Assembly: GCA_964371625.1 (NCBI GenBank)
Contig: CAYJMP010000002.1
Location: forward strand, 197,034 to 261,033
Origin: an uncultured Ignavibacteria bacterium
GTDB lineage: Bacteria > Zixibacteria > MSB-5A5 > WJJR01
Direction of reading: 5' to 3'
Length of the DNA stretch: 64,000 bases
The notes below the pieces were generated by a model, which was not told the DNA's origin, did no database searches, and saw only the letters and a list, made by a program, of their open reading frames with translations. The translations under genes were made by a program, and so were the position numbers. Below are positions 7,070 through 56,011 of the stretch, piece after piece (position 1 is the stretch's first letter; every line of letters starts with the position of its first letter).

Positions 7070-9919
7070 ATGAAGCAACGCATTCTTCTCGTTATAGCCT
7101 GCGCCATCATGGTGCTGGGTCTGGCCGCCACGAGTTTCTCCGATCAAGTCATCCGCAAAGAGTTCGTACCGGTCGATGAGACGCCGCGCTGGGTTGAGGA
7201 CGAGTTCATTGTTGTCCTGAAGCCGGCATTTGTCTCCAGTTTCAATGTCCAGAGCGACAAGCGCGCCAACAGGGTTCAAGTCAGCGTCGCCTCTATCCAA
7301 CAACTGGTCAATGGCCACCAAGTCACGAGGATGCAGCGTCAGTTTGCCGCCGCCGCATCGCCGGAACTCGAAGCCTTTTACACAGTCAAGCTCGCCCCGG
7401 GACAGAGCCTCGACCTTGCCGCCGCGGCGTTTGCGTCCGACCCGGCGGTCGACCATGTCGAGAAGATCGGCATCCATCCTCTCTCGGCCAACTGCGCGAC
7501 CGGCACACCCCGCCCGGCAAATGACACCTATTACAACAACCCCCCGCCGACTTTTAACTGGCCGCTGTGGGGTCTGTGGGATACCAAAGGAATCGATGCC
7601 GAGATGGCATGGACAGTACAAGACGGAGATGCCACCGTCGTCGTCGTTGCCATGGACTCGGGTGTCAAGTACACGCACGGCGACCTGGGCGGCACCAATC
7701 CTCCCGGCCCGGCAGATAACTCCACCAATGGAAACGTCTGGGTGAACCCCTTCGAAATCCCCGCTAATGGCATCGACGACGAAGGAAACGGATTTATCGA
7801 CGACGTGGTCGGCTACGACTTCGTCACGGGAGTAACGGGCTGTGCGTCAGGCGAAGACTGCTCCACGGTCGACAACAACCCGATGGATTTCAACGGCCAC
7901 GGTACCCACACCGCCGGCACGATGGCCGCGATCACGAACAACGCGAAAGCTGTAGCCGGTGTTGCCGGCGGATTTGGCGATGGGACCACCGGCTCGGCCG
8001 GCAATGGCTGCAAGATCATGTGCATGCGTATCGGATGGTCCGACGCGGCCGGGAATGGCTACGTCCGCATGGATTTCGCCGCCCAGGCCATCAACTACGT
8101 CGTCGGCATGAAACAGCGCGGCGTCAATGTCGCCGCCATCAACTGTTCATGGGGCACGTCTAACTCCGGGGGTGTCGCCGCCGCCCTCGATGCAGCCATG
8201 AATAATGATATTCTCGTCTGCCATGCAGCCGGGAACTCCAACTCAAGCGTGGCCGACTACTTCGGCGGTCGTACCGAGATTCTCAATGTCGCCGCCACCG
8301 ATGAAGCGGGCTTGCGCGCCAGCTTCTCCAACTACGGCTCATGGGTGGACATTGCCGCACCGGGCGTTGCGATTATTAGCACCTATCAAGTCGGCACCGA
8401 CCCCGTTCCGGATTATGTCGCGGTGCTCGACGGCACCTCCATGGCGTCGCCCCATTGCGCCGGTGTCGCGGGACTTCTGGAATCGCAGAATTCTGCGCTG
8501 ACCCGCGCCAACAAATTCACCATCATGACGACCAACACCTGTGCCGCAGGCAGTGCGAACATCGGCGGAATTCTCAATGCCAAAAAAGCGCTCGACGCCG
8601 CTGGCGGTGGTGGACCTCAGCCTCCGGTCGCGGCGTTTGTTGGTTCACCCACATCCGGCTGCGTGCCTCTGACAGTGGCCTTCACCGATCAGTCGACCAA
8701 TACGCCGACAAGTTGGGCTTGGACCTTCGGCGATGGGGGCACCTCGACCGCACAGAACCCGTCCCACCAGTACAATGCCGCCGGATCTTACACTGTCACT
8801 CTGACCGCGACAAATGCGGCCGGCTCCGATGGGGAAACCAAGACCAACTACATCACCGTCGGCGCGGGCGCGCCGGTGGCCAACTTCAGCGGTGCGCCGA
8901 CCTCTGGAGCAGCGCCGTTGGCAGTCAACTTCACTGACTTGTCGACAAATGGCCCATCGTCCTGGTCCTGGACTTTTGGCGACGGTGGAACCTCGACCGC
9001 CCAGAACCCCTCCCACACGTATGCCGCCGAGGGAACCTACAACGTCTCGCTGACCGCGACCAATTCGTGCGGCAGCGATGGCGAGACCAAAGTCGGATAC
9101 ATCACGGTGAGCGCCGGCAGCGGTTGGACGGTCATAACCTCCGACAATTTTGAAACCGGCTTCGGAAGTTACACGGATGGCGGTACCGATTGCAGCCGCT
9201 ACACATCGACCACCCATGCGCACCAAGGGGCGGCGGCAATCGATATTCAGGACAACACGACGACTTCGCTATTTTCTCACACGGCGACGTACAACGTGAC
9301 CGGATACAACACGCTCGAGGTCTCGTTCTGGTTTAAGGCCGTGAGCATGGAAACTGGCGAGGATTTCTGGGTGCAGTACTTCAATGGGTCAACATGGCAG
9401 ACGGTGGCCGACTACAACAGTGGCACCGACTTTGCAAACAACACATTCTACAACAAAACGGTCACCATCTCCCGGAGCACGTACACCTTCCCAACCAACG
9501 CGAGAATCCGGTTCCGTTGCGACGCCAGCGACAACAACGACGATGTCTACATCGACGAAGTCGTGTTCCGCGGCACAACGGCGCTGCTCGCAGTGCCGGG
9601 CGAGGTGCCGACCGAAATCACTTCCGCCAATCCAGTGCCGCGTTCGTTCGGACTCGATCAGAACTATCCGAACCCGTTCAACGCCGGAACCAACATCTCC
9701 TTCTCGTTGCAACAGAGCGGCGATGTCAGCCTGGTCGTCTATGACATTCTCGGACGCACCGTTCGTCATCTCGCCGCCGGCTTCCATGCCGAAGGACAGC
9801 ACACCGTCGCCTTTGATGGCCGCGACGAAGATGGAGCGCCGCTCAGTTCGGGCGTCTATTTGTATCGCTTGATCGCACCCGGAGTCTCGCAGACGCGTAA
9901 GATGGTCCTGATGAAATAG
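7070..9919 (+). CDS. Secreted subtilisin-like S8 serine peptidase with two PKD-like domains and a T9SS C-terminal sorting domain
   Basis: Catalytic triad motifs AMDSGV / HGTHTAGT / GTSMASPH; two WxWTFGDGGTSTAQNPSH repeats; C-terminal NYPNPFN...KMVLMK sorting domain; GAGGA RBS upstream of ATG. Confidence 0.85.
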   Translation: MKQRILLVIACAIMVLGLAATSFSDQVIRKEFVPVDETPRWVEDEFIVVLKPAFVSSFNVQSDKRANRVQVSVASIQQLVNGHQVTRMQRQFAAAASPELEAFYTVKLAPGQSLDLAAAAFASDPAVDHVEKIGIHPLSANCATGTPRPANDTYYNNPPPTFNWPLWGLWDTKGIDAEMAWTVQDGDATVVVVAMDSGVKYTHGDLGGTNPPGPADNSTNGNVWVNPFEIPANGIDDEGNGFIDDVVGYDFVTGVTGCASGEDCSTVDNNPMDFNGHGTHTAGTMAAITNNAKAVAGVAGGFGDGTTGSAGNGCKIMCMRIGWSDAAGNGYVRMDFAAQAINYVVGMKQRGVNVAAINCSWGTSNSGGVAAALDAAMNNDILVCHAAGNSNSSVADYFGGRTEILNVAATDEAGLRASFSNYGSWVDIAAPGVAIISTYQVGTDPVPDYVAVLDGTSMASPHCAGVAGLLESQNSALTRANKFTIMTTNTCAAGSANIGGILNAKKALDAAGGGGPQPPVAAFVGSPTSGCVPLTVAFTDQSTNTPTSWAWTFGDGGTSTAQNPSHQYNAAGSYTVTLTATNAAGSDGETKTNYITVGAGAPVANFSGAPTSGAAPLAVNFTDLSTNGPSSWSWTFGDGGTSTAQNPSHTYAAEGTYNVSLTATNSCGSDGETKVGYITVSAGSGWTVITSDNFETGFGSYTDGGTDCSRYTSTTHAHQGAAAIDIQDNTTTSLFSHTATYNVTGYNTLEVSFWFKAVSMETGEDFWVQYFNGSTWQTVADYNSGTDFANNTFYNKTVTISRSTYTFPTNARIRFRCDASDNNDDVYIDEVVFRGTTALLAVPGEVPTEITSANPVPRSFGLDQNYPNPFNAGTNISFSLQQSGDVSLVVYDILGRTVRHLAAGFHAEGQHTVAFDGRDEDGAPLSSGVYLYRLIAPGVSQTRKMVLMK

Positions 9920-13402: not shown

Positions 13403-14926
13403 TCACGTCTCCAATTCGGGGATCGGGATTCCCCCGCTCTCATTGGGCTCGTAGACGACGCCGAGATAGTCTTCGGGATTGATCCCTTCGGCGCGAGAAT
13501 CGAGGACTGTGTCGATGTGCAGAAGCGACCCGGGATCGGATTCCTTCTTCTTGACCCGAAGCTCCTTGGCTTTACGCATCGGCGCTCCTTCCGCATCGCG
13601 AATGACGAGCACCTCCGGGGCATAGAGGTCGGCCGAGTCGTTCTTCGTCACAATAGCGACCGAGCCGTCGGACAATTTCACCACCGTGCCAATCGGGAAC
13701 ACGCCGACCACGTGGACAAACGCTTTGAGAATTAGCGGGTCGTACCATTCGCGGCCCTTGTATAGCAACCGCCGGATCGCCTCGTCAGGGCTGATCGTCT
13801 CTTTCTGATAAACTCGTCCCGAGGTCATGGCGTCAAAAGCGTCGCAGACGCTGATAATACGTGAAAACAAATGCAGCGTCCGCGGCCGTGAGAGCTTGGG
13901 GTATCCGGTGAGGTCCATCTTGAGGTGATGTTCGAACGCACCCGCAATCGACAAGCCCGTCTCGGCGTCGAGCGGGCGCATGCTGGCAATCGTGAGCGCC
14001 CCCAACGCCGGATGACGCTTCATCTGCTCCCAGTCATCATCGTTGAAATCTTCGGGCTTGGCGATAAGATCGCGTGACAGCTTGACCTTGCCGATATCAT
14101 GGAACAGCGCGGCCAATCCGAGACTCGCCAACCGTACTCTGTCCATCCCCAATCGCATCCCAACCGCGATCGAATATATGGCCACGTTGACCGAGTGATA
14201 GTAAGTGTATTCGTCGAAGTCCTTAAGTGTCGCAAACTCCAGCAGAATCTCTTCGTCGTGCGCGACTTCATCGATCATCTGGTGCACGACGCGCTGCACA
14301 GCACCTGCATCAAAGGAATTTCGGTCGCGGACTCGTTCCCAAAACTCCTGCACCACGGCTTCCGAACGCTGGAAGAGCGCCTGGGCACGGCGGCGCTTGA
14401 TCGTCGTCGGATCGACGTTCGGATCCATCTTGCGGGCGTCGAGGAACTCGCCCGGGTCTTTGGTTGCCAGGGGCGTAATCGTCACGCGGCCGATCCCAAC
14501 CGCTTTGAATGTCTCTTCCAGTGTCGCGAACGGATCGGTACAGCGGCGGTCGGTGCCGGCCAATGCGAACAACACCTGGTCGATCTCGCTGGCGGGCGCG
14601 TCGCGCGAAATCGTCAATCCGCCCAGACGCAATTCGGCAAACCGCGCGGCAAGCGAACGGCCAAAAGAGAACTCACGGTCGTAGTTGAGCCGCTCCCCGT
14701 TAAAGAAGATGTAGTCGTTCTGATACGTGATCTTGCAGTCGGCGCCGCTCTCGAACAACACTTGCAGCGCTTGGGCAAACTCCTCGCGCCGCGACCGAAA
14801 CGCGTTGTTGTTCTCATCGTACACAGCCGCCGCTCGCCAGGCCGCGTAGAACGTTCGCAGCGCGGTTGTCGCCAAGGCATAGTTGGCCGAACGGGTCGAT
14901 GAGGTCGGAGAAGAAGATTGCGTCAT
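13403..14926 (-). CDS. HD-GYP domain phosphohydrolase (putative c-di-GMP phosphodiesterase)
   Basis: HD motif LFHDIGK and GYP motif HHLKMDLTGYPK; start overlaps upstream gene stop in ATGA. Confidence 0.8.
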   Translation of the reverse strand: MTQSSSPTSSTRSANYALATTALRTFYAAWRAAAVYDENNNAFRSRREEFAQALQVLFESGADCKITYQNDYIFFNGERLNYDREFSFGRSLAARFAELRLGGLTISRDAPASEIDQVLFALAGTDRRCTDPFATLEETFKAVGIGRVTITPLATKDPGEFLDARKMDPNVDPTTIKRRRAQALFQRSEAVVQEFWERVRDRNSFDAGAVQRVVHQMIDEVAHDEEILLEFATLKDFDEYTYYHSVNVAIYSIAVGMRLGMDRVRLASLGLAALFHDIGKVKLSRDLIAKPEDFNDDDWEQMKRHPALGALTIASMRPLDAETGLSIAGAFEHHLKMDLTGYPKLSRPRTLHLFSRIISVCDAFDAMTSGRVYQKETISPDEAIRRLLYKGREWYDPLILKAFVHVVGVFPIGTVVKLSDGSVAIVTKNDSADLYAPEVLVIRDAEGAPMRKAKELRVKKKESDPGSLLHIDTVLDSRAEGINPEDYLGVVYEPNESGGIPIPELET

Positions 14927-16767
14927 TCGTCATCCTCGCTCTCGGCCATATCGGGGGAACTGGCCATTTTGTGCCGCAATGCCAGAGCCGAACGTGCCGC
15001 TTCGGCTACATCGGTGGCGCGGTCTTTGCTCAAGACTTCGAGTTCTCCACGCGCTCCCTGATCGGATGATGCTCCCAGAGCGCGAATGGCCGCGAGACGG
15101 ACCGGCTGCCAACGTGTGCGTTTGAAGAAGGGCGCCCGCCGCGCCAGCCCGATCAAATCCTGCGCCGCCTGTTTGCCGCCCAGGCGCGCATATGTTAAGA
15201 GCAGTTCTTTCATCTCCGCCGGGTCGCGGTCGGGCAAGGTCTCGGGATCGATCTGTGCCTTCAAGTCGCCGACAACTGCCGTGCTCTTGCGCTGTCCGAG
15301 CGCCCGTAGCGCTCGTTTGCGGAGGTCGACATCTGGATCGTTGAGGAACCCCCGCAAGATTCGCTCGGCATCCTCGCCGAGAATGCGCTTGGCGGCGCGC
15401 AGCGTTTCCAAACGAACACGCGCATCAGTGTGTGCTGCGGATTTCTTCAGGAAGGTCACCCCGCGTTCGTTACCGATCTCGCCCAGGATCATCGCTACGT
15501 TGCGCGAGACAAACCACCGCTTGTCATAGATAAACCCGCCGATCAGATCGACCGTCTCACGGCCGTTGGCGATGAGAAAGTCGCAGATCATCATTCGCGC
15601 CGGACGATGCTCGACACTGCCGAGCATGCCGGTGATGGGGGTGATCGCGGCGGTTCCGAAGAGCGAGAGCAGGTCGCGGATCGGCTCGAGGTTGACTTGA
15701 GGGTTGGTATTCAGGTATTGGGACAGGTGTTCGAAATGGCGTTTGTCCGCCATTCTTGTGATTGACCCGTTAATTCGCTGCGCCGCACGCGGCGGGACAT
15801 CGGCCATCAAACCACGAACTTCGATGAGGATTTTGCGCGCCACGCTCCAACGATCCAGGTTCACCGACTGCTCAAACTGTTTCTCCAGCACCGTGACCGC
15901 GTCTTCCAGAGTACGTCCGCCATCCGATGCCCGAATGATCTCCATCAGGATGTCCAATCCCAACGATTCGGCGGCATCGTCAGACTCCGGTCGACAAAGC
16001 TGGGTTATTTCGGATTTCTCCGTGATCGTGAGGGCTGATATGTCGCCGAAAACCTTTAGGACGTGCAAATGCCGCTCGCGTTGTGCGCCGGAGTATGGGC
16101 TGGCTGGCGCGACCGGCGCCGCGACCGTCGCTTCGGTCGGTGCAGCCTCGGGCCCTTCGGGGAGGAGCGAACCTGTAAACTGTTCGTGCGCCGCTGCCAA
16201 CTCGTCGTCGCCAGCCGCATCGATGTACGCGCCTTCGATGACTCGATCAACTGTGTAGTGCTTGATGTGCGGAAACGACGCTTCCCATAACCGGTTGGCG
16301 ACGTCCACCTTCGATCCGATGGCTGCCAACGCCTCCGCCCCGATCTGCAGGAAACGGTCCGCCTCCATCCGGCTCACGCCGATCTCGAATCCGACCTCGC
16401 GGATGCCGTCCTTGAAGAACAGATAGGCGAGATTCTCTTCACTGGCCGCACCTTCGTAGACAGACTGTCCCGATGTCGTGAATGCCGTATCCGAAACCTG
16501 CAGGACAAACGTCCCGTGATCTTCCAGAAGAAGCGTCAACGCATCGAAGAACTTCCCGCGAAATTCATCAGGGAGAGGATTGGATGGTGGATAAAGGCAG
16601 ATGGTCTTGACCGCGCGAGACCACGTCGTGCAGAATTCCCGCACCGACCGCACGGTGCGATCATTGGTGGCCGTCGGTACCCCGCCCGAGATCACCGCCG
16701 GCTTGTCAAAGTCGATGAAATTGCTCTCCACCATGCTATTGTTCTTATCGGCATGAACCCGGGGCAC
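14923..16767 (-). CDS. HEAT/PBS-lyase-type repeat protein; start uncertain
   Basis: C-terminal half contains repeated helical units (...DARVRLETLRAAKRIL, ...DVDLRKRALRALGQ, ...VRLAAIRALGAS); coupled to HD-GYP gene. Confidence 0.55.
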   Translation of the reverse strand: MPRVHADKNNSMVESNFIDFDKPAVISGGVPTATNDRTVRSVREFCTTWSRAVKTICLYPPSNPLPDEFRGKFFDALTLLLEDHGTFVLQVSDTAFTTSGQSVYEGAASEENLAYLFFKDGIREVGFEIGVSRMEADRFLQIGAEALAAIGSKVDVANRLWEASFPHIKHYTVDRVIEGAYIDAAGDDELAAAHEQFTGSLLPEGPEAAPTEATVAAPVAPASPYSGAQRERHLHVLKVFGDISALTITEKSEITQLCRPESDDAAESLGLDILMEIIRASDGGRTLEDAVTVLEKQFEQSVNLDRWSVARKILIEVRGLMADVPPRAAQRINGSITRMADKRHFEHLSQYLNTNPQVNLEPIRDLLSLFGTAAITPITGMLGSVEHRPARMMICDFLIANGRETVDLIGGFIYDKRWFVSRNVAMILGEIGNERGVTFLKKSAAHTDARVRLETLRAAKRILGEDAERILRGFLNDPDVDLRKRALRALGQRKSTAVVGDLKAQIDPETLPDRDPAEMKELLLTYARLGGKQAAQDLIGLARRAPFFKRTRWQPVRLAAIRALGASSDQGARGELEVLSKDRATDVAEAARSALALRHKMASSPDMAESEDDE

Positions 16768-26278: not shown

Positions 26279-27370
26279 TTAATGCGCGCAGGGATAATCC
26301 ATGCAATCGATTTCGACATCATAAGCCGGTACGGTCGTGATCGACGGGTTCTTCGCCGGATCGACCGTCCATGACGTCATTCCATACTTCAGCGCCACAG
26401 CATCGTAGCCCAGAATATTAAGCGCCATGGTCGCGTAGCTGGCGGTGTGACCGGTGTAGCAGATCACCACGATCTGTTTGTCGGTCGGAAGCTTGGCAAG
26501 ATTCGCAGGGTCGGCCACGGTCTTCCAGGCAATATTCACCGCGCCGACGACATGAGTGGCGGCGTAGTCTGTAGAGCCACGGGCATCGAGAATGAACGGG
26601 TCATTGGCGGCGTTGCCGTCGTTGAGATTGTTGTACAGTGTCATCGACGAAATCGTCGGCGCTGCACCGGAGGAGAGGTAGGCATCGGCCGCCGCGCGGA
26701 CAATCTCCACATCATCGGACGACGTTGTGTTCTCGACCGTCGGAAGTGTGTGGGTCCCGGGTGTCACGGCTTCGGTGCTGATCGGATAATCGCCGCAGTC
26801 CACTTCGGAATCATAGACCGGGTTCGATGTAATCCATGGGAAATAAGTCGGGTCGACGGTCCATGAGGTCATACCGAATTTCATCGCCTTCGCCTTGATG
26901 TACCCTATCGATCCGAGGTACGCCGCGCTCTGGCATGCGGTGTGCCCTGTGTAGCAGACCACCACGATCTCTTTCTCCTTGTCAGTCGGCAATGAACTCT
27001 GATTGGAGGCCTTTGCGATTTCACGGAACGGGATGTTGACCGAACCGGGGACATGGCCGGCGGTGAAATCACTGGTGCCGCGAACATCAAGCACGAACGG
27101 GTCATTGGCCGCGTTGCCGTCGTTCAGGTTGTTGTAAAGTGCGGCGGCGGTCATTGTGGCTGTGGCGCCGGTGAAGTACGCTTCGACGGCATCGGAGATA
27201 ACGTCGAATTCCGACACGGTCGGGCCGGTCGTCTCGTCATCATCCGAGCATCCGACCGCGATCAGCATCGCCAAGGCTACCAGTCCGATTCCCACCATCC
27301 GCATCCATTTGCTTGTACTTTGGTGCATACGATCCTCCTTCGTAGGTTCGCTTGATTCGACTCCTGTCAT
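26279..27370 (-). CDS. Tandem-rhodanese-domain lipoprotein (sulfurtransferase, Sud-like)
   Basis: Two rhodanese modules each with active-site CYTGHT; lipobox AVGCS; start overlaps cytochrome stop in ATGA (27367-27370), though the real start may be an internal Met. Confidence 0.75.
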   Translation of the reverse strand: MTGVESSEPTKEDRMHQSTSKWMRMVGIGLVALAMLIAVGCSDDDETTGPTVSEFDVISDAVEAYFTGATATMTAAALYNNLNDGNAANDPFVLDVRGTSDFTAGHVPGSVNIPFREIAKASNQSSLPTDKEKEIVVVCYTGHTACQSAAYLGSIGYIKAKAMKFGMTSWTVDPTYFPWITSNPVYDSEVDCGDYPISTEAVTPGTHTLPTVENTTSSDDVEIVRAAADAYLSSGAAPTISSMTLYNNLNDGNAANDPFILDARGSTDYAATHVVGAVNIAWKTVADPANLAKLPTDKQIVVICYTGHTASYATMALNILGYDAVALKYGMTSWTVDPAKNPSITTVPAYDVEIDCMDYPCAH

Positions 27371-28695
27371 TCATCCCACGGCACCGGTCCATCGGGCACG
27401 ATGACCCCGGCGTTGGCTTCGATTTCATAGTCCCGCAAGTCGGCCGCTCGCAAAAAGAGGGTTTCGCTGTTGTGGCACACGGCCGAGCAGTTCCCCGTAC
27501 CGGCTGAGTCCGTCTGCGGTGTGTTGCGGCGAATGTTGTGCGGCGACGCGTATTTCCACGTTGGCAAAACATCGAAATCGTTCAGTGCGAGGCCCCAGTC
27601 AGCAAACGTGTTCGGGTCAACCGGCGCATGGCGCAGGGCCACGTAGCTGTAGCCACGCTTGGTCGGTAGAGGATTGCGCCCGATTTTGATTCCCAAGCTC
27701 GACGGCTCCTGCAGTCCCTCGCCGGCATGGCAACTGTAACAGTTCTTGTATTCCTGCGCGTGACAGGCTTGGCATTGCACATCCGTCCAATGTTGCGTAT
27801 GCCAAATGTTGGCCGAGGCATCGTCAGTGTGACAATTCTCGCAACGCGGCATCTCCACGACATCGTAACGCTTGTCGTAACCGCGCCCGTCGGCGTGCAT
27901 CTCAGAGCCCGTGTGGCAGGCGAGACACGACATCGCATTTGGATTCCAGTGGACATCGGCTTTGTATCCGGCGCGTGAACCCAGATACTCCTCGCCGACA
28001 CGGCTCCCATGGCAGGCGGTGCAGTTATTGAAGAGCGATGGTGTGCGCACCACGGCATGACCGGCAAGGAACCCGCCGCCCACGCTGGCGGGACGCGAGA
28101 TATGACATTGGCCGCAACTCGTGTGACACTTGGCGCATTGCGATTGGTACTTATCCTTGTAACTCGGCGAGTTCGGATCGAAGGCGCCGCCTGAACGCGC
28201 GCCGATCATGGACAAATACCCGCTCTGGTTGGAGTGCACTGATGTGGAGTCATTGCCGACGATACCGCCATGACACTCGCTGCAGATACCGGTCGCCGCA
28301 TCCGAAGGATGGGTGACGAGCCCTTCATGTGCCCCTTCTTTTGATTCAGCGTTCTTGTTTCCCGCATGGCACCCAGCGCATCCGACAGAGTTGTGGACGT
28401 TATCGATAAACTCCGCCTGGCTGACCATGACCCGTTCCCATACCTCCAACGGAGGTACCGATCCACCTCACCCTTCGCCCGGCTCATCGCCGCCACTTCC
28501 TGTGTCGGGTTCCGCGGTCGCAACCAGCTGATCCTTGCTGGTGTGACAGCCAACACAACTGCCCCCGCGCGCACTCGATAATCCCAGATCTCGTTCGGTG
28601 GCGCAGCCGGCCAACAACAGCACGAGAAGCGCCAACCCGGGCATCCATGTCATGAGAGGATTCCCGCGCGTGAAATCAGACAATTTGTGATTCAT
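27367..28695 (-). CDS. Lipoprotein multihaem cytochrome c (~10 CxxCH) interrupted by a single in-frame TGA at 28468-28470 (recoded, pseudogene or sequence error)
   Basis: Upstream ORF (GGAGGA RBS, signal peptide + LLAGC lipobox, CVGCH) and downstream ORF (nine CxxCH, no signal peptide) are in the same frame separated only by TGA; continuous reading ...DEPGEG-TGA-GGSVPPLEVWERV... Confidence 0.6.
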
Positions 28696-28760
28696 TTCAC
28701 ATATCCTCCGTGTATCTAATACGTAATGTCGGCTCGCGGACCAATGGATATGTACCATAT

Positions 28761-35980: not shown

Positions 35981-38449
35981 ATGATCGAGCTACACGCCAA
36001 GATTAAGGAAGTCGCGGGGAAACCCGAGGGCCAGGTCCTTGTAAACATCAATTACGATATCATCAAACAGATGTCAGCGCAGCTTTACACGAATCCACGA
36101 AAGGCGATCGAGGAGCTGGTCTGCAATGGGTACGATGCTGGTGCAACCGAGTGTCATGTAAAACTGCCGCTGAATGAGTCCGATTCACTTGTCGTACTGG
36201 ACGACGGGGTCTCGATGGATCTCAATGGTCTCAGAGACCTTTGGATGGTAGCAAAGAGCCCAAAGTTGCCCGATCAGAATGGTCGAAGAGTTGGCAATAA
36301 CCGACTGCAAATAGGGAAGTTTGGTGTCGGCAAACTTGCCGCGTATGCTTTGGGCAGCCGATTGACTCATGTCGCTACCGTGGCAGGTGTGACAAGAGTC
36401 GTATCGGTTGGCGAAGATGAGATCAAAGAGCAACAAGGAGGTCGTGCTCCCAAATTCGAGGTCTACAAGATGCCAGAGTCGCAAGCGCGACAATACCTGG
36501 AACCTTACCTCGGTACCCTCCCCCGCCCATGGGATCGCGGATGGGACAGCTGGACCATCGCGGTGGTTGAGGGTGTAGAAAGCGGCAATATCGCTCGGGC
36601 TCTGAAGATCGGGATTCTCCGCAGGATGATCACGGCTGCGCTTCCGATTTCAAAGTCGTTCAAAGTCGTCCTCGAGGGAGAGACCGTCCCAATCCGAAAG
36701 ATCGAGCAAGCGGACATTGAACTCACGATTGACATTGGTGACGCAGAATTCCGCAAAAAACTTGAGTCAAATCTACGCGACTATTGGCAGAAACAGTTGT
36801 CGGCGACAACGCCGGAAGACGTGCCGGCCTCCTACTACAAACTCTCGAAGCAGAGAACGCCAGATCCTCTGGATGTAAGCAAAGAACTCAATGCAATCAA
36901 CGTGCCTCACTTGGGCCCAGTGGTAGGCAACGCCATACTTGCCAAGCACACCCTCACTACCGAGAAACTCGATGAGCGCGGGTATGTTAGCCACGGCTTC
37001 GCGGTTAAGGCGAATGGGAAATTAGTCAACCCGGAGGATGAACTGTTCGGGATATCTCCCCGGAGCCATGCGTATTGGAGACGATTCTTGGCGCGAGTCG
37101 AAATGCCGGGACTCGATGACGTTCTCTTGGTTCAACGAAATGCTGTCTCAGAAAAGAATCAGATGGCGCAAGTGGCACGTGAGGTATTGCGAACTCTTTT
37201 CGAGTACACTCGAACTCAATCCGAAGCAGCACTTGAGGCAGATGAGGTTCCACTAGAACCTTTCGGGTCAAAAGTTTCCAAAATTGCTCCGATGCTGGCT
37301 CCGTTGGCGCTTGAAGCGCTCAGCGGAGGAACTTTGCCTACAGACGGCCCAGCATCGGTGAAGATAGATTTCGTGACCCTCAAAGAAAGCAACTCTGCAG
37401 CTCAGTACGACGCGACTGATCATACAATTCAAGTAAACGTAGAGCATCCCATCATTGCTGCTCTCAATGACCTCCAGCGAGAGAATCAAAAACAATGGCG
37501 GAGAGTAATTGGCGAGATCGTGGCGGGCGGCAAGCTCGTGGAGGGACTTCTCATTGCGAGAGCGGTCAGGTCAGAAGTTATAAGTGAAGTTGAAGAGCTT
37601 CTGGATACAACACTACGCAGCGCTGCGAGCTTTATCCGTGACCCCGTAGAGGAGCATATCAGGGAGATCGATGAAGCTTCCTATGAGGGGGGAACCCGAT
37701 TCGAGAATGCAGTGGTAAATGCTCTGAGGAGTATGCGTCTAGTTGCATGGCACATTGGCGGTGCCGATAACCCAGATGGCATAGTTGAAATTCCAAGAGC
37801 TGGAGCGAAAAACCTCAGGATTTCTATCGAGGCTAAGGGGACGAAGGGAGTAATAACACACACAGAACTCAGCCAGGCTACTGTGGCTCGCCACGAAATG
37901 GAATCTGGCTGCACTTCCTCAGTGGCAATAGCACGAGAGTACCAAACCGAAGGTATTGGCGGCCAAGATAGTGGCTTAGTGCGGGAAACACAGGGAAAGC
38001 TCCCTCTACTGACGGTGTCCGCGATATCTAAGATGCTAAAGCTTCAACAGAAGCGACGGTTCACATATGACATGGTGGCCAAAATACTCACAATCTGGAC
38101 CGACCCGGAGGAGCTCGACGGCTTCGTGGAAGAGACATGGAGACAGCTGCCTGAGACTGGGCTAATGAGGCTGATTCTTGAGGTTGCGCATGACAAGATA
38201 GCAAACCACGAAGAAAACCTTCCCGATCCTGGTATGTTGGTTGATGATCCCCGTCTTGCTAAGCTAAAGATCAAGAAGGAGGCAGTCATTCATGTCCTGC
38301 AAGCAGTGGCCTTCACTACTAGAATGATAACCATACAGAATACGAGCAACTACGAATTCACGTTGAATGCGCCTGTGGAAACCATCCTCGACGCGATGAC
38401 CAAGGCCTCACAGGAGCAAATCGAGACGACGTCTAAATCTAAGTGTTGA
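35981..38449 (+). CDS. GHKL (MORC/HATPase_c_3-like) ATPase fused to a C-terminal PD-(D/E)xK-like nuclease motif
   Basis: Bergerat-fold motifs: N-box ELVCNGYDAGA, G1-like VLDDGVSMD, G2 GKFGVGKLAAYALG; C-terminal DNPDGIVEIP...LRISIEAKG resembles D...ExK; gene sits in a visibly AT-richer segment. Confidence 0.7.
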   Translation: MIELHAKIKEVAGKPEGQVLVNINYDIIKQMSAQLYTNPRKAIEELVCNGYDAGATECHVKLPLNESDSLVVLDDGVSMDLNGLRDLWMVAKSPKLPDQNGRRVGNNRLQIGKFGVGKLAAYALGSRLTHVATVAGVTRVVSVGEDEIKEQQGGRAPKFEVYKMPESQARQYLEPYLGTLPRPWDRGWDSWTIAVVEGVESGNIARALKIGILRRMITAALPISKSFKVVLEGETVPIRKIEQADIELTIDIGDAEFRKKLESNLRDYWQKQLSATTPEDVPASYYKLSKQRTPDPLDVSKELNAINVPHLGPVVGNAILAKHTLTTEKLDERGYVSHGFAVKANGKLVNPEDELFGISPRSHAYWRRFLARVEMPGLDDVLLVQRNAVSEKNQMAQVAREVLRTLFEYTRTQSEAALEADEVPLEPFGSKVSKIAPMLAPLALEALSGGTLPTDGPASVKIDFVTLKESNSAAQYDATDHTIQVNVEHPIIAALNDLQRENQKQWRRVIGEIVAGGKLVEGLLIARAVRSEVISEVEELLDTTLRSAASFIRDPVEEHIREIDEASYEGGTRFENAVVNALRSMRLVAWHIGGADNPDGIVEIPRAGAKNLRISIEAKGTKGVITHTELSQATVARHEMESGCTSSVAIAREYQTEGIGGQDSGLVRETQGKLPLLTVSAISKMLKLQQKRRFTYDMVAKILTIWTDPEELDGFVEETWRQLPETGLMRLILEVAHDKIANHEENLPDPGMLVDDPRLAKLKIKKEAVIHVLQAVAFTTRMITIQNTSNYEFTLNAPVETILDAMTKASQEQIETTSKSKC

Positions 38450-38460
38450 GAATTGGGTCA

Positions 38461-39828
38461 ATGGCCGCAAGATGTAGCAGTTCCCAATCAATCATGATAG
38501 ACGATCAGACAATTCAAGACGCGGACATGTTGCGATGGAATCAGTCTCACGGATTTCGCTTCACACACGACCTCTTCAAGTTTCCTGGGAAATTCCACCC
38601 TCCGTTAGTAGAGCACATCTTGCGTTCGATGAACCCTGCGGGTGTCATTGACCCCATGGCCGGTGTCGGAACGGTTGCTGTGGAGGCGAAGGCGGCCGGC
38701 GTCCCATCGCTCTCGCTGGATATCGATCCGGTGAGTACGTTTTTTGCACGGGTTAAGACTACTCCTATTGCACGGCGAACGCTGGACTGTGCTTGGAAGG
38801 ATCTCTCAAAGTCCTTACGCCGCTTTCGCAGAACGGACAACGAGATCGAGATTCGCAAATTTCGCGACTTGAGAGTCGATCGAATGCGCGGGCAGCTATC
38901 CACAGTGAATGCAAGTGATCTCGAAAGTCTGAGTTACTGGTTTCGCCGGTATGTCCTAGTCGACTATGCGAGGATCGACCATTCCATTTCCAATGGGGGG
39001 CTCCCCGGGAGATCGGAGATTGTGCGTCGATTCTTCCTAGCGTGCCTGATCAGTTCGATCCGCCGCATTAGCCTAGCGGATCCAAGTCCTGTGAGCGGCC
39101 TTGAAATTACGAAACACATGAGGGCTCGCATTGAGTGCGGGTACTTAGTCGATGTGTTTCGAGAGTTTGAGCGCCGCGTTGAGATTGCAATCCGGAGAAT
39201 GGATGAGTACGAATCGTACCTTAAGCAGTGCGGAACATATGACACTCCATCGCTGATTGAACAGACAGACTGCAGTAACTTGCTTGAATCAGCCGGTGCA
39301 CGGAAGATTGGTGCAGACCTGATTCTCTTCTCGCCACCGTATTGCAACGCAATCGAATACTGGCGACGACACAGATTAGAATATCTACTCGGGCGATTCC
39401 TTGACGAGAGAGAAATCTGCGAGCTTCACGCAAGCTTCATTGGTCGTACCAAAGTCGGGTCGACCAATGAATTTCCCCAAATGCTCGGTTATGTACCCGT
39501 TGACCGATTACTCTCCAGTCTAATCAAGGACGGAAGGCGGAAGAAGGCTCGAGTATTATCGCAATACTTTATCGACATGAGGGACCGACTACAGGTGTTT
39601 CGCGATTTTCTGCCCGTCGGTGGGTTCTGCGTTCTGGTTGTTGGGGACAGCGTAACCGGTGCGAAGAGAATACCGACCGCAAAGACTCTTGCGTGGATAG
39701 GTGCTGACTTGGGTTTTGATCATCTCAAGACAACGCGCTATAAAATCAAGAATAGAGTCATGCAATTTCCAATCAAATCGAATGCAAAGATCGAAAGTGA
39801 ATCGATCCTTGTTCTACAAAAAGTCTGA
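38461..39828 (+). CDS. SAM-dependent DNA methyltransferase (N6-adenine or N4-cytosine type)
   Basis: Motif I DPMAGVGTVAVEA and motif IV LILFSPPY; ORF overlaps or abuts the upstream GHKL gene stop (earliest GTG at 38443, ATG at 38461). Confidence 0.75.
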   Translation: MAARCSSSQSIMIDDQTIQDADMLRWNQSHGFRFTHDLFKFPGKFHPPLVEHILRSMNPAGVIDPMAGVGTVAVEAKAAGVPSLSLDIDPVSTFFARVKTTPIARRTLDCAWKDLSKSLRRFRRTDNEIEIRKFRDLRVDRMRGQLSTVNASDLESLSYWFRRYVLVDYARIDHSISNGGLPGRSEIVRRFFLACLISSIRRISLADPSPVSGLEITKHMRARIECGYLVDVFREFERRVEIAIRRMDEYESYLKQCGTYDTPSLIEQTDCSNLLESAGARKIGADLILFSPPYCNAIEYWRRHRLEYLLGRFLDEREICELHASFIGRTKVGSTNEFPQMLGYVPVDRLLSSLIKDGRRKKARVLSQYFIDMRDRLQVFRDFLPVGGFCVLVVGDSVTGAKRIPTAKTLAWIGADLGFDHLKTTRYKIKNRVMQFPIKSNAKIESESILVLQKV

Positions 39829-47566: not shown

Positions 47567-49198
47567 TTAGAATTGCAGGCTCATTCCCGCTTCCAACCTG
47601 TGCCCGCGCGTGTCGTCCCCGCCACTCAACTGACCGAGAGCATTGAGCGCGAGTGCCTGGGTAATTCCAACCCGGACTGTCAGATCCGCGCGTCGATTCA
47701 GACGGGCGTCGGAATTGCCTGCGAGAGTGTAACTGTACAGTCCCGCGCCAAGGCTGATCCAGTCGCGTTGACCAACACCCTGTCCCAAGGATGCGTTGAG
47801 ATTGTAACCGGAGGTGGCATCGCTCACGAAACGGACCCCCTGCACGCTGAAACTGCTCTTGGGGTTGAAAAGACCCTGCTTGCGCACGGCGCCATTGTAT
47901 GAGGTTGTCCGGTCCTGCTCTCCTTCCACTGAACGCACACCCGCACCGGCGGACAGATAGATCCCTTCCGGCAAGGCAAGATCGAATTGCGTCCGGACAC
48001 CCTGACGCACACGATCATCAAAGATGCTGTCGGCGATATCACGCGTCTCGTAGGTCCGGTAGCTCTTACGTGTGTCGTAGGACACCGACGCGGTGAGACT
48101 GCGCGTGAGATTCACCCGCCCCTGTGCGTAGATCGTCGAGAGACTGATTGACTGACTGTTTTCACTCTTGCGCCAGCCGCGATTGACATCAAGCTCGAGG
48201 CTGTGACTGAGGTTCCAACGGCCATTGCGTGCCATGCGGCCTTGGGCGAACAGCGCCTCGCGGCTCGCCGTCCCGCCATGGTACTGCCCGACGACGGAAA
48301 ACGTCTGATCCAGCAGGAAGTCGCGCGCCGACCCGCGCCGGTAACCAGCATACGCGCCGTAAGTCTGAAGATTCGGGCGATTCTCTGCGTACTGCCATTG
48401 CGAATTGGCTCCACCGAAAATCCCGATGCGCGCGAATTGCGAAACACGATACTCAATGGAACCGCCATCCAGCCGGCCGATGGCGCCCACGCGTGCTGGA
48501 TTGATTCGACCCATCGACATCCCTGCCCGCGAACCTTCGGGTTTGTACTCCAAAACGAAAGTCGCAATGCGACTCTCCCAAGAGTTCTCACGACCATCAT
48601 CACTGGGAACAACACGGCGATCCCGTCTCCCCGACGTTCGAAGGGCGAATGACAGCCCCGGCGTCCAGAGTGGCTCGACGCGGAGATCGATATCGACCCG
48701 CCCCTGGCCGAAATCCAGCCCGGCATCGCTGTGATCGTCCCAGTTGCTGTACATCATCGCAATTGAGCCAGATGCCTCCGGATGGATCGCCGGACCATCA
48801 TTGACGCGGGATTCGACGGGATCTACTCGTTGAATCTGGGAGAGCGCTTCTGCGGTTGACTGGGGAGCTGGTTCGGAGGTATCTGGCACGGCACGAAGCT
48901 CAACGTTGAGCTTGACGACATCACCTACCGATAGACTCACAACGGGTTCAGGCATCCGGCACGCCGAAGAGTGTTCTGCCAGATGGAGCACCTCGAGTTC
49001 GGCGATTTTCTGATCGTCACGGAATACCACGGGTCTCGCCCCGACAAACAGTCCTTCCGCCCTGCCCCCATTCAGATACACCAGGTCCGCGGAAACAAAT
49101 GTCACCTTGAGCACACGCTCGATGGTTTCCGCGCAGACCACAGACGCAGACAACAGGAGTATCGCGACGCAAATCGAGACGGCGACAAGAGATCTCAC
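47567..49198 (-). CDS. Outer-membrane beta-barrel protein (putative porin partner of the cytochromes)
   Basis: Signal peptide; alternating aromatic/hydrophilic beta-strand pattern; C-terminal ...GMSLQF with terminal Phe; GTG start overlaps cytochrome stop (GTGA). Confidence 0.6.
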   Translation of the reverse strand: MRSLVAVSICVAILLLSASVVCAETIERVLKVTFVSADLVYLNGGRAEGLFVGARPVVFRDDQKIAELEVLHLAEHSSACRMPEPVVSLSVGDVVKLNVELRAVPDTSEPAPQSTAEALSQIQRVDPVESRVNDGPAIHPEASGSIAMMYSNWDDHSDAGLDFGQGRVDIDLRVEPLWTPGLSFALRTSGRRDRRVVPSDDGRENSWESRIATFVLEYKPEGSRAGMSMGRINPARVGAIGRLDGGSIEYRVSQFARIGIFGGANSQWQYAENRPNLQTYGAYAGYRRGSARDFLLDQTFSVVGQYHGGTASREALFAQGRMARNGRWNLSHSLELDVNRGWRKSENSQSISLSTIYAQGRVNLTRSLTASVSYDTRKSYRTYETRDIADSIFDDRVRQGVRTQFDLALPEGIYLSAGAGVRSVEGEQDRTTSYNGAVRKQGLFNPKSSFSVQGVRFVSDATSGYNLNASLGQGVGQRDWISLGAGLYSYTLAGNSDARLNRRADLTVRVGITQALALNALGQLSGGDDTRGHRLEAGMSLQF

Positions 49199-52100
49199 TC
49201 GTCCCCCCGCGGGTGGCAGCTATAACACGCTGCGCTGAGGTACTGATACCCGTTTACTTCGTTGTGGTCGTCGTCCGTGTCAGTCCTGTTGTGCTCGTGG
49301 CAGAGGATGCACTCGAAGGTGGCGAAACTGGCCGAGTTGACGTGGCAGTCGGCGCAGTCATTCCACTTGTCTTTGTGTTTACCTGAGTAGATCGGGAAGT
49401 ATTGCGAATCGTGATTCCAATTGGCCGGAGTCCAGGCGGTCGTCGTATGGCATGTCTGGCACGTTGTCGGAAATCCTGCCGCCGCGTGATCGGGCGTCGC
49501 CGTGCTGTAATCGCTGCTGTGGCAGGCGAAGCACTCCGAGGACGTCCCGCTGTACCCTGATGCGTGGCAACTGTTGCACGTCACGGTCCGATGCGCACCG
49601 GTCAGCGGGAACCCCGTCTGATTGTGATCATAGGTCGCGGGTGTCCATGCGGTCGTCGTATGACACACTGTGCACTGAGTCGAGAAACCCGCGGTCACGT
49701 GATTGGGATCGGTGACACCGGTGTAATCGCTTTCATGACACGCCAGACATGCGGTCGGAGTGCCTGAGTACCCGATCGAGTGGCAGCTGTTGCATGTCAC
49801 CGTGATATGCGCGCCGGTCAATGGGAACGCGGACTGATTGTGATCGAATGACGCCGGTGTCCAGCCGCTCGTTGTGTGACACTGTTCGCAGAGTGTCGGG
49901 AAACCCGAGCTGACGTGATTCGGATCACTCGCTCCGGTGAAATCATCATGATGACAAGCATCGCATGCCGATGGCGTCCCGGTGTATCCCGCTGCGTGAC
50001 AGCTCGCGCAGGTCGTCGATGTGTGCGCTCCCGTCAACGGAAATCCGCTCAGGTTGTGATCGAAGGACGATGGTGTCCAAGCCGTCGTCGTGTGACACTG
50101 CTCACAGAGAGTTGGAAATCCCCCGGTGACGTGATTGGGGTCGGTGACTCCCGAATAATCACTCGAGTGGCAGGCGTAACACGCAGATGATGTTCCCGCG
50201 AATCCGGTTGAATGACAGCTGTTGCAGGTCACGCTCTGATGCGCTCCGGTCAGCGTGAATCCGGTCTGCGTGTGTGACCACGTCGATGGGTCCCAACTCG
50301 ACGTGTTGTGGCATTGCGTGCAGGTGGTCGAGAACCCCGCCGCCGTGTGATTGGGATCGGTGACGCCAGTGAAGTCGGCATGATGGCAGGCATCGCACTC
50401 GGTTGGTGTTCCCGTATATCCACTCGCGTGGCAACTGACGCATGTGACCGAGCGATGTGCTCCGGTCAACGCGAATCCACTGAGATTGTGATCGAAGGAT
50501 GATGGTGTCCACGCCGTCGTCGTGTGGCATTGCTCACAGAGTGTGGGGAATCCTCCGGAGACGTGGTTGGGGTCGGTGACCCCGGTGTAGTCGCTTGCGT
50601 GACAGGCGTAGCACGCCGCGGCAGTCCCCGCGAAGCCGGTGGAATGACAACTGTTACACGTGACACTTTGATGTGCTCCGGTCAGTGTGAACCCGGTTTG
50701 CGTATGCGACCAACTCGACGGGTCCCAATTCGACGTGCTATGGCACTGCACGCAGTTCGTGGAGAATGCCGCCAATGAGTGATTGGGATCGGACGCGCCG
50801 GTGAAATCACTGTGGTGACAGGCATCGCACTGCGTCGGTGTCCCGGTGTACCCACTCGCGTGACACTTGACGCATGTGATCGTCCGGTGTGCACCGGTCA
50901 GGGCGAATCCGGTTAAGTTATGATCCAATGTCGCAGGCGTCCAGCCGGCGGAAGTATGGCATTGGGCACAGGCTGTTGAGAATCCTGCGCTGATGTGATT
51001 CGGGTCGATCACGGCCAGGTAATCGGCGTGATGGCAGGCATCGCATTGCGTTGGTGTGCCCGCATACCCGGATGTATGACAGCTCGCACAGGAAACCGCG
51101 GTGTGTAGTCCTGTCAGTGCAAAACCTGTGGTGCTGTGGTTGAAAGTCGCCGGCTCCCAGGCAGACGTTCCATGGCATTGCGCGCAGTCGGTCGGAAAAC
51201 CCGAATGAGAGGGATCGTCCGCTTGCGTGAAATCGGTCTCATGGCAGGCGATGCACGCCGAGGCTGTCCCCGTGTACCCGGTCGTGTGGCATTGATTGCA
51301 CGCCACCGCCAAGTGCGCGCCGGTCAATGGGAATCCGGTCAGGTTATGATCGAGAGTCGCCGGCTCCCATGCCGCGGTTGTGTGGCATTGTGTGCATTCG
51401 GTCGGAAACCCGTTCGCTGCGTGACCCGGGTCGTCCGTGTTGGTGTAATCGGATTCATGGCAAGCGAAGCAGGCCGACGGTGTCCCGGTATACCCTGAGG
51501 CATGGCAATTATTACAGCTGACAGAGACGTGAGCGCCCGTGAGCGGGAATCCTGTCAGATTGTGATCGAGAGTGGCAGGAGTCCACGCCGTCGTGGTGTG
51601 GCACTGAGTGCACTCGGTTCCAAAACCGGCCGCCACGTGGTCCGGATCATCGACACCTGTGTAATCCGGCTCATGACAGGCGAGGCAGGCTGACGGTGTA
51701 CCCGTGAATCCCGAGGTATGGCAATTGTTGCATGAGACAGCGATATGGGCGCCAGTCAACGGGAAGTCGGATAGATTGTGATCCCAATCGGCCGTCTCCC
51801 ACGCCGACGTCGCGTGACATGTCGCACAGTCTGTAGAGAAATGCGAACCGTCATGATCGGGGTCGGCGGCGCCTGTGTAGTCAGTGGCATGGCAGGCATA
51901 GCATAGAGTCGAAGTTCCGGTGAAACCTGATTGGTGACAATCGTTACAGGCCGCAGCCACATGCGCACCCGTCAACGGGAAATCCGTCAGGTCGTGATCA
52001 ATGTCGGCCGGCTCCCATGCGGATGTCGTGTGACACTCCGCGCACTCGGTGGAGAAATCCGAAGCGACGTGATTGGGATCGACCGCCCCAGTGAAATCAC

Positions 52101-56003: not shown

Positions 56004-56011
56004 GATGAAGA

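Follow-up and report, generated by a model that had tools for sequence, protein, structure and literature searches.

Architecture of an interrupted cytochrome c gene

We analyzed a 64,000-nucleotide (nt) stretch of DNA (hereafter the window) from an uncultured Ignavibacteria bacterium that is placed in the Zixibacteria in the GTDB lineage (GenBank assembly GCA_964371625.1, contig CAYJMP010000002.1, positions 197,034 to 261,033 of the forward strand), in which the gene of a multihaem cytochrome c is interrupted by a single in-frame UGA. All coordinates below refer to the full 64,000-nt window, and features of the minus strand are read from high to low numbers. From its translation and from comparison with homologues, the gene (27367..28695, minus strand) is predicted to be a complete selenoprotein gene that encodes a 442-residue pre-lipoprotein, with one UGA read through. 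Read from the ATG at 28695, the frame runs MNHK...LLLAGC...CVGCH...GDEPGEG-TGA-GGSVPPLEVWERV... and terminates at the TGA at 27369-27367. Its sole interruption is the TGA at 28470-28468, which links a 75-codon lipoprotein leader, carrying the first CxxCH motif, to a 366-codon multihaem body. The program-made list of open reading frames (ORFs) gives the two halves of the split gene as 28468..28758 and 27367..28449; an earlier reading made from the window sequence alone (hereafter the sequence-only reading) had placed these two ORFs in one frame parted only by the TGA, and translation confirms this. Public gene callers likewise split the gene at the UGA and call the downstream half as a product of 353 residues.

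The upstream part has each of the features that the sequence-only reading had ascribed to it. A Shine-Dalgarno-like GGAGG, read from the sequence, lies 9 nt 5' of the ATG (28705..28709, minus strand) and is followed by a signal peptide (28603..28695, minus strand) that ends in the lipobox L-A-G-C, which we assigned because LLLAGC in the translation matches the pattern [LVI][ASTG][GA]C. We scored residue conservation in 77 full-length read-through sequences, in which the lipobox Cys31 is conserved in 72 and the first haem motif, CVGCH (residues 47-51; 28543..28557, minus strand), in 74 to 75. The UGA (28468..28470, minus strand) is codon 76 and falls in the motif G-E-G-U-G-G, where U denotes the proposed selenocysteine (Sec). 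Downstream of it, motif conservation delineates a haem-binding core (27472..28380, minus strand) with nine CxxCH motifs (residues 106-323), a CxxxCH at 403-408, and ten conserved additional His residues, and the translation of the joined frame reveals no signal peptide in this part. The sequence-only reading had thus been right about the nine downstream CxxCH motifs and the missing signal peptide, but its count of ten haem motifs left out the conserved CxxxCH (C403-C407-H408), with which the total is eleven.

Conservation of the UGA codon among relatives

Related loci were collected in a one-genome-per-species scan that returned at least 593 related stretches, from which the best 80 loci were kept, and the DNA upstream of each match was read in frame; the counts of codon states given here cover these best 80 of the at least 593 stretches. 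The sequence-only reading had proposed an alignment of orthologous cytochromes as a check on the site. In this alignment, the codon is TGA in 74 of the 80 loci, TGT or TGC (Cys) in four (L004, L038, L066, and L078), and TAA or TAG in none. The residues around the site follow the consensus G-E-G-U-G-G-[SE]-[VL]-P-[PQ]-[LV]-E-x-W-[EQK]-K-V, and in every relative the frame 5' of it specifies a CxxCH motif as well as a signal peptide, in most cases one with a lipobox. The hosts are metagenome-assembled genomes (MAGs) of Anaerolineae, Dehalococcoidia, Calditrichota, KSB1, Eisenbacteria, Krumholzibacteriota, Phycisphaerae, Acidimicrobiia, and others, with Cys forms in Bacteroidota and Ignavibacteria.

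At the protein level, a search returned 655 relatives, nearly all of which are 350 to 375 residues long and span only the C-terminal 80% of the joined protein. Three full-length relatives align a Cys with the UGA, the site reading ...EPSGES-C-GGEVSPLEAWEKV in P0011, ...GGGGG-C-GGETPHIEVYDRV in P0084, and ...DPGEG-C-GGTVPEMEAWEKA in P0095; Cys also occupies the site in the more distant P0153, P0181, P0199, and P0260. Judged from these alignments, the alternation of UGA and Cys reads as the classical Sec/Cys signature, with TGA as what appears to be the ancestral, conserved state of the codon. The family is of considerable size, with 125 clusters at E ≤ 1e-30 and 571 clusters at E ≤ 1e-3 among 1.84 billion representatives at 50% identity.

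A conserved hairpin downstream of the UGA

A hairpin that fold and comparison mark as a candidate bacterial Sec insertion sequence (SECIS) lies directly 3' of the UGA (28440..28458, minus strand). Its 5' arm, GUACCUCC, occupies 28458-28451, the loop GUU 28450-28448, and the 3' arm, GGAGGUAU, 28447-28440. The palindrome that the sequence-only reading had reported at 28441-28457, starting 10 nt past the UGA, is real, and in full it forms a 19-nt hairpin with an 8-bp stem that includes a closing G.U pair, begins at the 10th nt past the UGA, and places the loop 17 nt from the UGA. The centroid hairpin from a single-sequence fold has a free energy of -10.9 kcal/mol. By our own arithmetic, ~4 perfect 7-bp hairpins are expected per strand in 64 kb, and this hairpin, taken alone, is within chance expectation; everything therefore depends on comparison with the relatives.

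The consensus for the bacterial SECIS (bSECIS) comprises an apical loop of 3-9 nt on a stem of 4-16 bp, a G at loop position 1 or 2 (most often as G[G/U]), a distance of 16-37 nt from UGA to loop, and a minimum free energy (MFE) of ≤ -7.5 kcal/mol (PMC13188914; criteria of Zhang and Gladyshev as summarized there). The window hairpin conforms on all four counts (GUU, 8 bp, 17 nt, and -10.9 kcal/mol), as do those of 65 of the 69 Sec-type orthologues, for which the median MFE over 28 nt is -11.5 kcal/mol. The reservation in the sequence-only reading about the small size of the hairpin relative to the known element (~40 nt) thus does not hold.

Pairing and covariation were measured by explicit pair counts on a gapless alignment of 67 sequences. 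In the helix, 86% of cells are paired, compared with 40-51% after the partner has been shifted by 1-3 columns, and the covariation is 0.219 versus 0.076 for shuffles, with 0 of 500 shuffles reaching the observed value. The alignment pair 15-29 is GC in 37 sequences, CG in eight, AU in seven, and UA in two, and the pair 16-28 is CG in 42 and GC in 14. Amino acids encoded by the stem are replaced in a correlated manner (V-P-P-L-E-V-W, V-A-P-L-E-P-W, V-P-P-L-E-G-W, and V-P-P-L-E-A-W), replacements that the pairing seems to force. Codon choice is skewed as well: the stem Pro codon is CCT in 43 cases and CCC in four, while CCT makes up just 10.8% of the Pro codons in the rest of these genes, and all 52 Pro codons that supply the loop G with their third base are CCG, versus a background of 45%, a synonymous skew that points to selection at the RNA level.

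The hairpin is absent from the divergent Cys forms L038, L066, and L078 and is retained in L004, which is apparently a recent Cys form. Eight loci (L003, L010, L018, L026, L035, L056, L057, and L064) carry an alternative register, at TGA +16 to +34, in which the hairpin lies 3 nt further downstream, for example as CCCGAGCU-GGA-AGCUUGGG, with the loop GGA instead of GUU or GGU and with the protein sequence altered to match (P-E-L-E-A-W). It is because of these comparative data, namely conservation, covariation, and synonymous skew, that we regard the hairpin as significant.

Selenocysteine recoding and alternative explanations

Because it is conserved, is paired with Cys in homologues, and is followed by a covarying SECIS, the UGA at 28470-28468 is very probably a Sec codon; Sec recoding had been one of the options of the sequence-only reading, and it is the one that the 74 TGA-bearing loci, the Cys pairs, and the covarying hairpin strongly support. 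As an overall explanation of the locus, a Sec codon with its SECIS and a single exported Sec-cytochrome is highly likely. From the window alone, however, the TGA shows as an ordinary stop; TGA is the commonest stop there, ending 22 of the 50 ORFs, including well-identified genes, and gene callers split the cytochrome gene. This is what a recent nonsense mutation would look like, one that left a pseudogene from which only a 75-residue monohaem lipopeptide is made; but TGA stands at the codon in orthologues from many phyla, coding is conserved on both sides of it, and the covarying hairpin follows, and since independent events at one codon in so many lineages are not credible, this explanation is scarcely plausible. 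An error of sequencing or assembly would require only one base change between TGA and TGC, TGT, or TGG, so that the real codon would be a sense codon such as TGC or TGG. Against this, an independent ENA assembly with 105x coverage has the identical TGA, and on one of its contigs the 75-residue N-terminal product is called beside the 353-residue product. In all, 31 contigs in NCBI, ENA, and Logan bear the truncated 353-residue product, among them a 3.33-Mb NCBI contig, which is the longest, and ENA ERZ13693049 NODE_4; with the 74 orthologous loci added, the likelihood of an error is negligible. Reassignment of UGA to an amino acid (Gly or Trp) in the genetic code of this organism has nothing in its favor beyond the in-frame TGA itself, and the sequence-only reading, which had considered it unlikely because TGA is a genuine stop elsewhere in the window, is upheld by the 22 TGA-terminated ORFs; as the same in-frame TGA also occurs in phyla with the standard code, the chance of reassignment is vanishingly small. 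In sum, mutation, assembly error (both of which the sequence-only reading had entertained), and a reassigned code are excluded, because TGA is shared by the orthologues, the Cys homologues align there, and the TGA recurs in independent assemblies.

Two further explanations accept the codon as a genuine UGA. Leaky or programmed read-through without selenium, in which a near-cognate tRNA (Trp, Cys, or Arg) decodes the UGA and the hairpin merely stimulates, would account for the lack of Sec machinery within the window and for those relatives that have Arg, Trp, or Cys at the site. The hairpin, however, fits the bSECIS consensus in its loop G[G/U] and its spacing as well, and where close homologues have another residue, it is overwhelmingly Cys, the mark of a Sec/Cys pair. 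We know of no bacterial system of hairpin-dependent non-Sec UGA read-through and have counted this against the explanation as well, which we consider very unlikely. Alternatively, translation could stop at the UGA and restart at the TTG at 28449, a start 18 nt past the UGA, or at the ATG at 28431, to yield a monohaem lipoprotein and a nine-haem protein, as in the split models of the gene callers. Yet the downstream product would lack a signal peptide, and export is a prerequisite for the attachment of c-type haem. In addition, GGSVPPLE, between the UGA and the putative restart, is the most conserved stretch in that part of the protein, and the full-length Cys homologues are single chains, all of which renders a pair of polypeptides highly improbable.

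Several observations weigh against the Sec assignment or against a general need for the residue. A comparison of 38 ORFs with NCBIfam and a tRNA scan found no selA, selB, selC, or selD within the 64-kb window, a sample that is uninformative on the genome; the tRNA scan returned only tRNA-Gln, and a tblastn search for SelD gave no match in the window or in 81 loci. In two of the 80 loci the site is occupied by neither Sec nor Cys, L002 having Arg (CGG, L002:5111) and L017 A-R-G-G-D-G (about 6200). Distant subfamilies have Cys, His (P0169), Tyr (P0216 and P0186), Trp (P0180), Pro (P0215), or Cys-Cys (P0182 and P0183) at the site, and others have no motif. The residue is therefore not indispensable for the fold, and the Sec/Cys loop would appear to be a specialization of one subfamily, not a structural necessity. 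As a separate observation, the His variant of P0169 would fit a role of the position as a haem ligand, and the other variants would not.

At the RNA level, folding of the sequence after the UGA had been a further check proposed in the sequence-only reading; the hairpin itself conforms to the bSECIS consensus, and the 76-nt fold has a z of -0.73, which is not significant. RNAalifold predicted no base pairs on the 67-sequence gapless alignment, which is probably an effect of the minority alternative register, and an Rfam scan of the site gave no SECIS match and only a spurious match to a long noncoding RNA. The RNAalifold outcome is in itself a caution against trusting an empty consensus fold. 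Finally, the AlphaFold model of the Cys homologue P0011 has a confidence score (pLDDT) of ~90 in the core and of <50 at residues 43-89, which contain haem motif 1 and the Cys.

Haem motifs and conserved residues of the cytochrome

The conserved Cys residues of the family are the lipobox Cys31, those of the ten CxxCH motifs and of C403-x3-C407-H408, and position 76. The haem-binding motifs thus total eleven, ten CxxCH and one CxxxCH, and Sec/Cys76 is the sole conserved Cys-type residue beyond the lipobox and the haem motifs; it sits in the glycine-rich G-E-G-U-G-G loop between haem motifs 1 and 2. The ten conserved additional His residues are at positions 101, 123, 154, 213, 249, 267, 299, 302, 356, and 386. 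Eleven haem motifs set against ten spare His leave one haem without a conserved His at the sixth position, and as far as the sequences can tell, this haem would either be open, like those of catalytic multihaem enzymes, or have Sec/Cys76 as its ligand.

The best PDB sequence match of the family profile is 1sp3 (E = 1.7e-6), the octahaem cytochrome OTR, and the family belongs with the proteins that have an OTR-like three-dimensional core. Pfam detects only generic cytochrome c7/c3 motifs, and no NCBIfam model reaches its cut-off.

A tandem rhodanese encoded next to the cytochrome

The neighboring gene on the same strand (26279..27328, minus strand; ATG at 27328, ribosome-binding site AGGAGG) encodes a 349-residue tandem-rhodanese lipoprotein with two Pfam Rhodanese domains (PF00581, E = 5e-31), each of which contains the active-site loop CYTGHT (Cys139 and Cys304), in keeping with its membership in this family. 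The rhodanese gene starts 38 nt after the cytochrome gene, and the two are co-transcribed. Both rhodanese domains also have a repeated Cys motif behind them, which reads E-V-D-C-G-D-Y-P for domain 1 and, at the C terminus, E-I-D-C-M-D-Y-P-C-A-H; its Cys residues are additional to those of the CYTGHT loops. We looked for Sec forms of the neighboring rhodanese in the loci and found none; the split rhodanese of L062 is a frameshift.

A tandem-rhodanese gene adjoins that of the cytochrome on the same strand in 67 of the 80 loci, downstream in 41 and upstream in 26, and natural fusions of the cytochrome with two rhodanese domains are found in P0159 (652 residues) and P0216 (715 residues). These fusions probably explain the JGI label “thiosulfate/3-mercaptopyruvate sulfurtransferase” on stand-alone members of the cytochrome family. 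The flanks of the pair in the window are divergent and unrelated, with purU upstream and a coiled-coil lipoprotein downstream. In some of the loci, genes are also present for a multihaem/cytochrome b fusion, a 4Fe-4S dicluster protein, more multihaem cytochromes, CcmE/F, and sigma-54 or LysR regulators. Because of the adjacency in 67 loci, the fusions, and the electron-transfer neighbors, the conserved unit would seem to be the Sec-cytochrome plus the tandem rhodanese, set within respiratory electron-transfer neighborhoods.

A proposed role in extracytoplasmic chalcogen reduction

Sequence comparison suggests the following course of events. The hairpin would act as a bSECIS and recruit SelB bound to Sec-tRNA(Sec), whereupon the ribosome would insert Sec76 and continue, and the product would be one exported, lipid-anchored cytochrome c with eleven haem-binding motifs. 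Because there are eleven such motifs for ten spare His residues and because Sec/Cys76 is the only other conserved Cys-type residue, Sec76 may belong to the catalytic center of the haem that has no conserved distal His, either as a nucleophile beside an open haem or as the sixth ligand itself. The tandem rhodanese would capture or deliver sulfane sulfur (or selenium), and electrons passed along the haem chain would reduce the Se-S or Se-Se adduct, releasing sulfide or selenide. The net reaction would be an extracytoplasmic chalcogen reduction, with polysulfide, tetrathionate, thiosulfate, and possibly selenite as candidate substrates.

A role as a sulfur or selenium reductase together with the rhodanese is a tentative proposal, somewhat short of an even chance, and it draws support from two precedents, MccSep, in which Sec lies beside a special haem and which is encoded in a cluster with a rhodanese, and the fold relative OTR, a tetrathionate reductase. 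That Sec76 is the distal axial ligand of one haem, which would create a natural His/selenocysteinate haem, is unlikely; to our knowledge, such haems have so far been seen only in engineered proteins. As the alternative to ligation, Sec76 may be the sole catalytic chalcogen at an open haem, and the numbers of haem motifs and of spare His residues are compatible with both variants.

Were this proposal true, the cytochrome and its dedicated rhodanese would form an unrecognized respiratory sulfur- or selenium-reducing module that is widespread in uncultured Chloroflexota, Calditrichota, KSB1, Eisenbacteria, and their relatives. Together with MccSep and the Sec-type OTRs, the family makes a general Sec-plus-haem mechanism for sulfur or selenium respiration testable in abundant uncultured phyla of sediments and the subsurface. 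The Sec codon matters also for annotation. Gene callers cut the protein at the UGA in almost every public genome, and the databases thus hold hundreds of “hypothetical” cytochromes of ~360 residues that lack the signal peptide, the first haem, and the putative catalytic residue, with some entries of the family mislabeled as sulfurtransferases. Recognition of the Sec codon restores a complete exported protein, adds a family to the selenoproteome, and bears on how sulfur cycling and selenium demand are inferred from MAGs.

Other features of the window

Many other pairs of ORFs in the window are split by a TGA, and we set these aside as chance pairs of the sort expected in high-GC DNA. The most suggestive of them was considered as a second selenoprotein gene (13403-15427, minus strand), in which a 507-residue ORF (13403-14926), putatively a protein with an HD-GYP-type domain, is preceded by an in-frame TGA and a 164-codon open stretch; it was rejected, as the upstream stretch is rich in Arg, Gly, and Ala and looks noncoding.

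The GC content falls to 0.51-0.52 between 36000 and 40000, compared with ~0.58 elsewhere in the window. This stretch holds an 822-residue protein (35981-38449) with an N-terminal match to BbrUII/HgiDII-type restriction enzymes and a 461-residue ORF assigned to no family (38443-39828), and it may be a horizontally acquired defense island. Four large ORFs have no strong NCBIfam match at 1e-40, namely 49195-54372 (1725 residues), 54318-56141 (607), 57455-63985 (2176), and 7070-9919 (949). The 949- and 2176-residue proteins share a domain of ~100 residues with ORFs near the cytochrome cassette in relatives. In L001, L002, and L009 these ORFs follow the cassette at a distance of 2-3 kb downstream, and in L066 they are encoded on the opposite strand.

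Comparison with known systems

The recoding mechanism proposed here is a standard one, and Sec-containing multihaem cytochromes are already known as a kind. The closest parallel is MccSep, also known as ExtKL, of Geobacter sulfurreducens (GSU2937-2936; NF040886; PDB 9WT8-9WTC), which reduces polysulfide and selenite via a Sec beside a special haem and is clustered with the rhodanese ExtH (Mihara et al., Sci Adv 2026, PMC13510729; see also PMC5877670). Both proteins are extracytoplasmic multihaem cytochromes c whose genes are annotated as two ORFs split by the Sec-UGA, with a small SECIS-like hairpin within ~30 nt, Sec and Cys forms in the family, and a rhodanese in the cluster, ExtH there and the tandem rhodanese here. 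Nevertheless, the family profile gave no match at E ≤ 1 to the MccSep chains 9WT8 and 9WT9, both of which are in the PDB sequence library, and the architectures differ. MccSep has five haems, a His/Cys-ligated haem, and an Ig-like C-terminal domain that bears Sec325 in a D-G-U-P motif, whereas the window cytochrome carries a lipobox and eleven haem motifs, has its Sec76 in a G-E-G-U-G-G loop near the N terminus, and lacks a second conserved free Cys. The taxa differ too, as MccSep is found mainly in Desulfobacterota and Nitrospirota and the window family in Chloroflexota, Calditrichota, KSB1, Eisenbacteria, and others.

A catalogue of prokaryotic selenoproteins from May 2026 lists three cytochrome-type families, ExtKL (NF040886), GSU2204 (NF041027), and OTR (TIGR04315), with some members of TIGR04315 annotated as selenoproteins by GenBank (PMC13188914). 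Four members of the window family gave no match at E ≤ 10 to NF040886, NF041027, or TIGR04315, while an OTR fragment, used as a positive control, scores 333 bits on TIGR04315. OTR of Shewanella oneidensis (PDB 1SP3) is an octahaem protein, in contrast to the eleven haem motifs here, and the N-terminal segment of the window family with haem 1 and Sec is without an OTR counterpart. Lys56 and Cys64, which we take to be active-site residues of OTR, as was reportedly described by Mowat et al. in 2004, fall in insertions that are absent from the window family in the hidden Markov model alignment. We considered Sec76 as the positional equivalent of OTR Cys64 and rejected this, because that alignment places the K56/C64 loop between haems 3 and 4 of the window protein and not in the N-terminal segment.

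The hairpin resembles the SECIS of the Escherichia coli fdhF type in lying inside the coding region, directly 3' of the UGA, but it is much shorter than the ~40 nt of the fdhF element and has no bulged U. With respect to the proposed role, the pairing of a periplasmic rhodanese-type sulfur carrier with a terminal reductase recalls the Sud-Psr system of polysulfide respiration in Wolinella succinogenes, and chalcogen chemistry at or beside a haem recalls TsdA and SoxAX, which are sulfur enzymes with a His/Cys haem (compare the discussion in PMC13510729). Unlike the protein described here, Psr is a molybdoenzyme and TsdA and SoxAX use Cys rather than Sec, and none of them is homologous to it.

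Our literature searches found no description of the window cytochrome family, and neither the May 2026 catalogue (PMC13188914) nor NCBIfam release 20 appears to include it. It is probably an uncatalogued family of Sec-cytochromes, and it may be a fourth, independently evolved family of Sec-containing multihaem cytochromes. It appears to be distinguished by its architecture, which combines an OTR-like core, eleven haem motifs, an N-terminal G-E-G-U-G-G loop, a lipid anchor, and a tandem-rhodanese partner. Together with MccSep (August 2026) and the Sec-type OTRs, the family points to a repeated recruitment of selenium to haem-based chalcogen reductases that are encoded beside rhodaneses.

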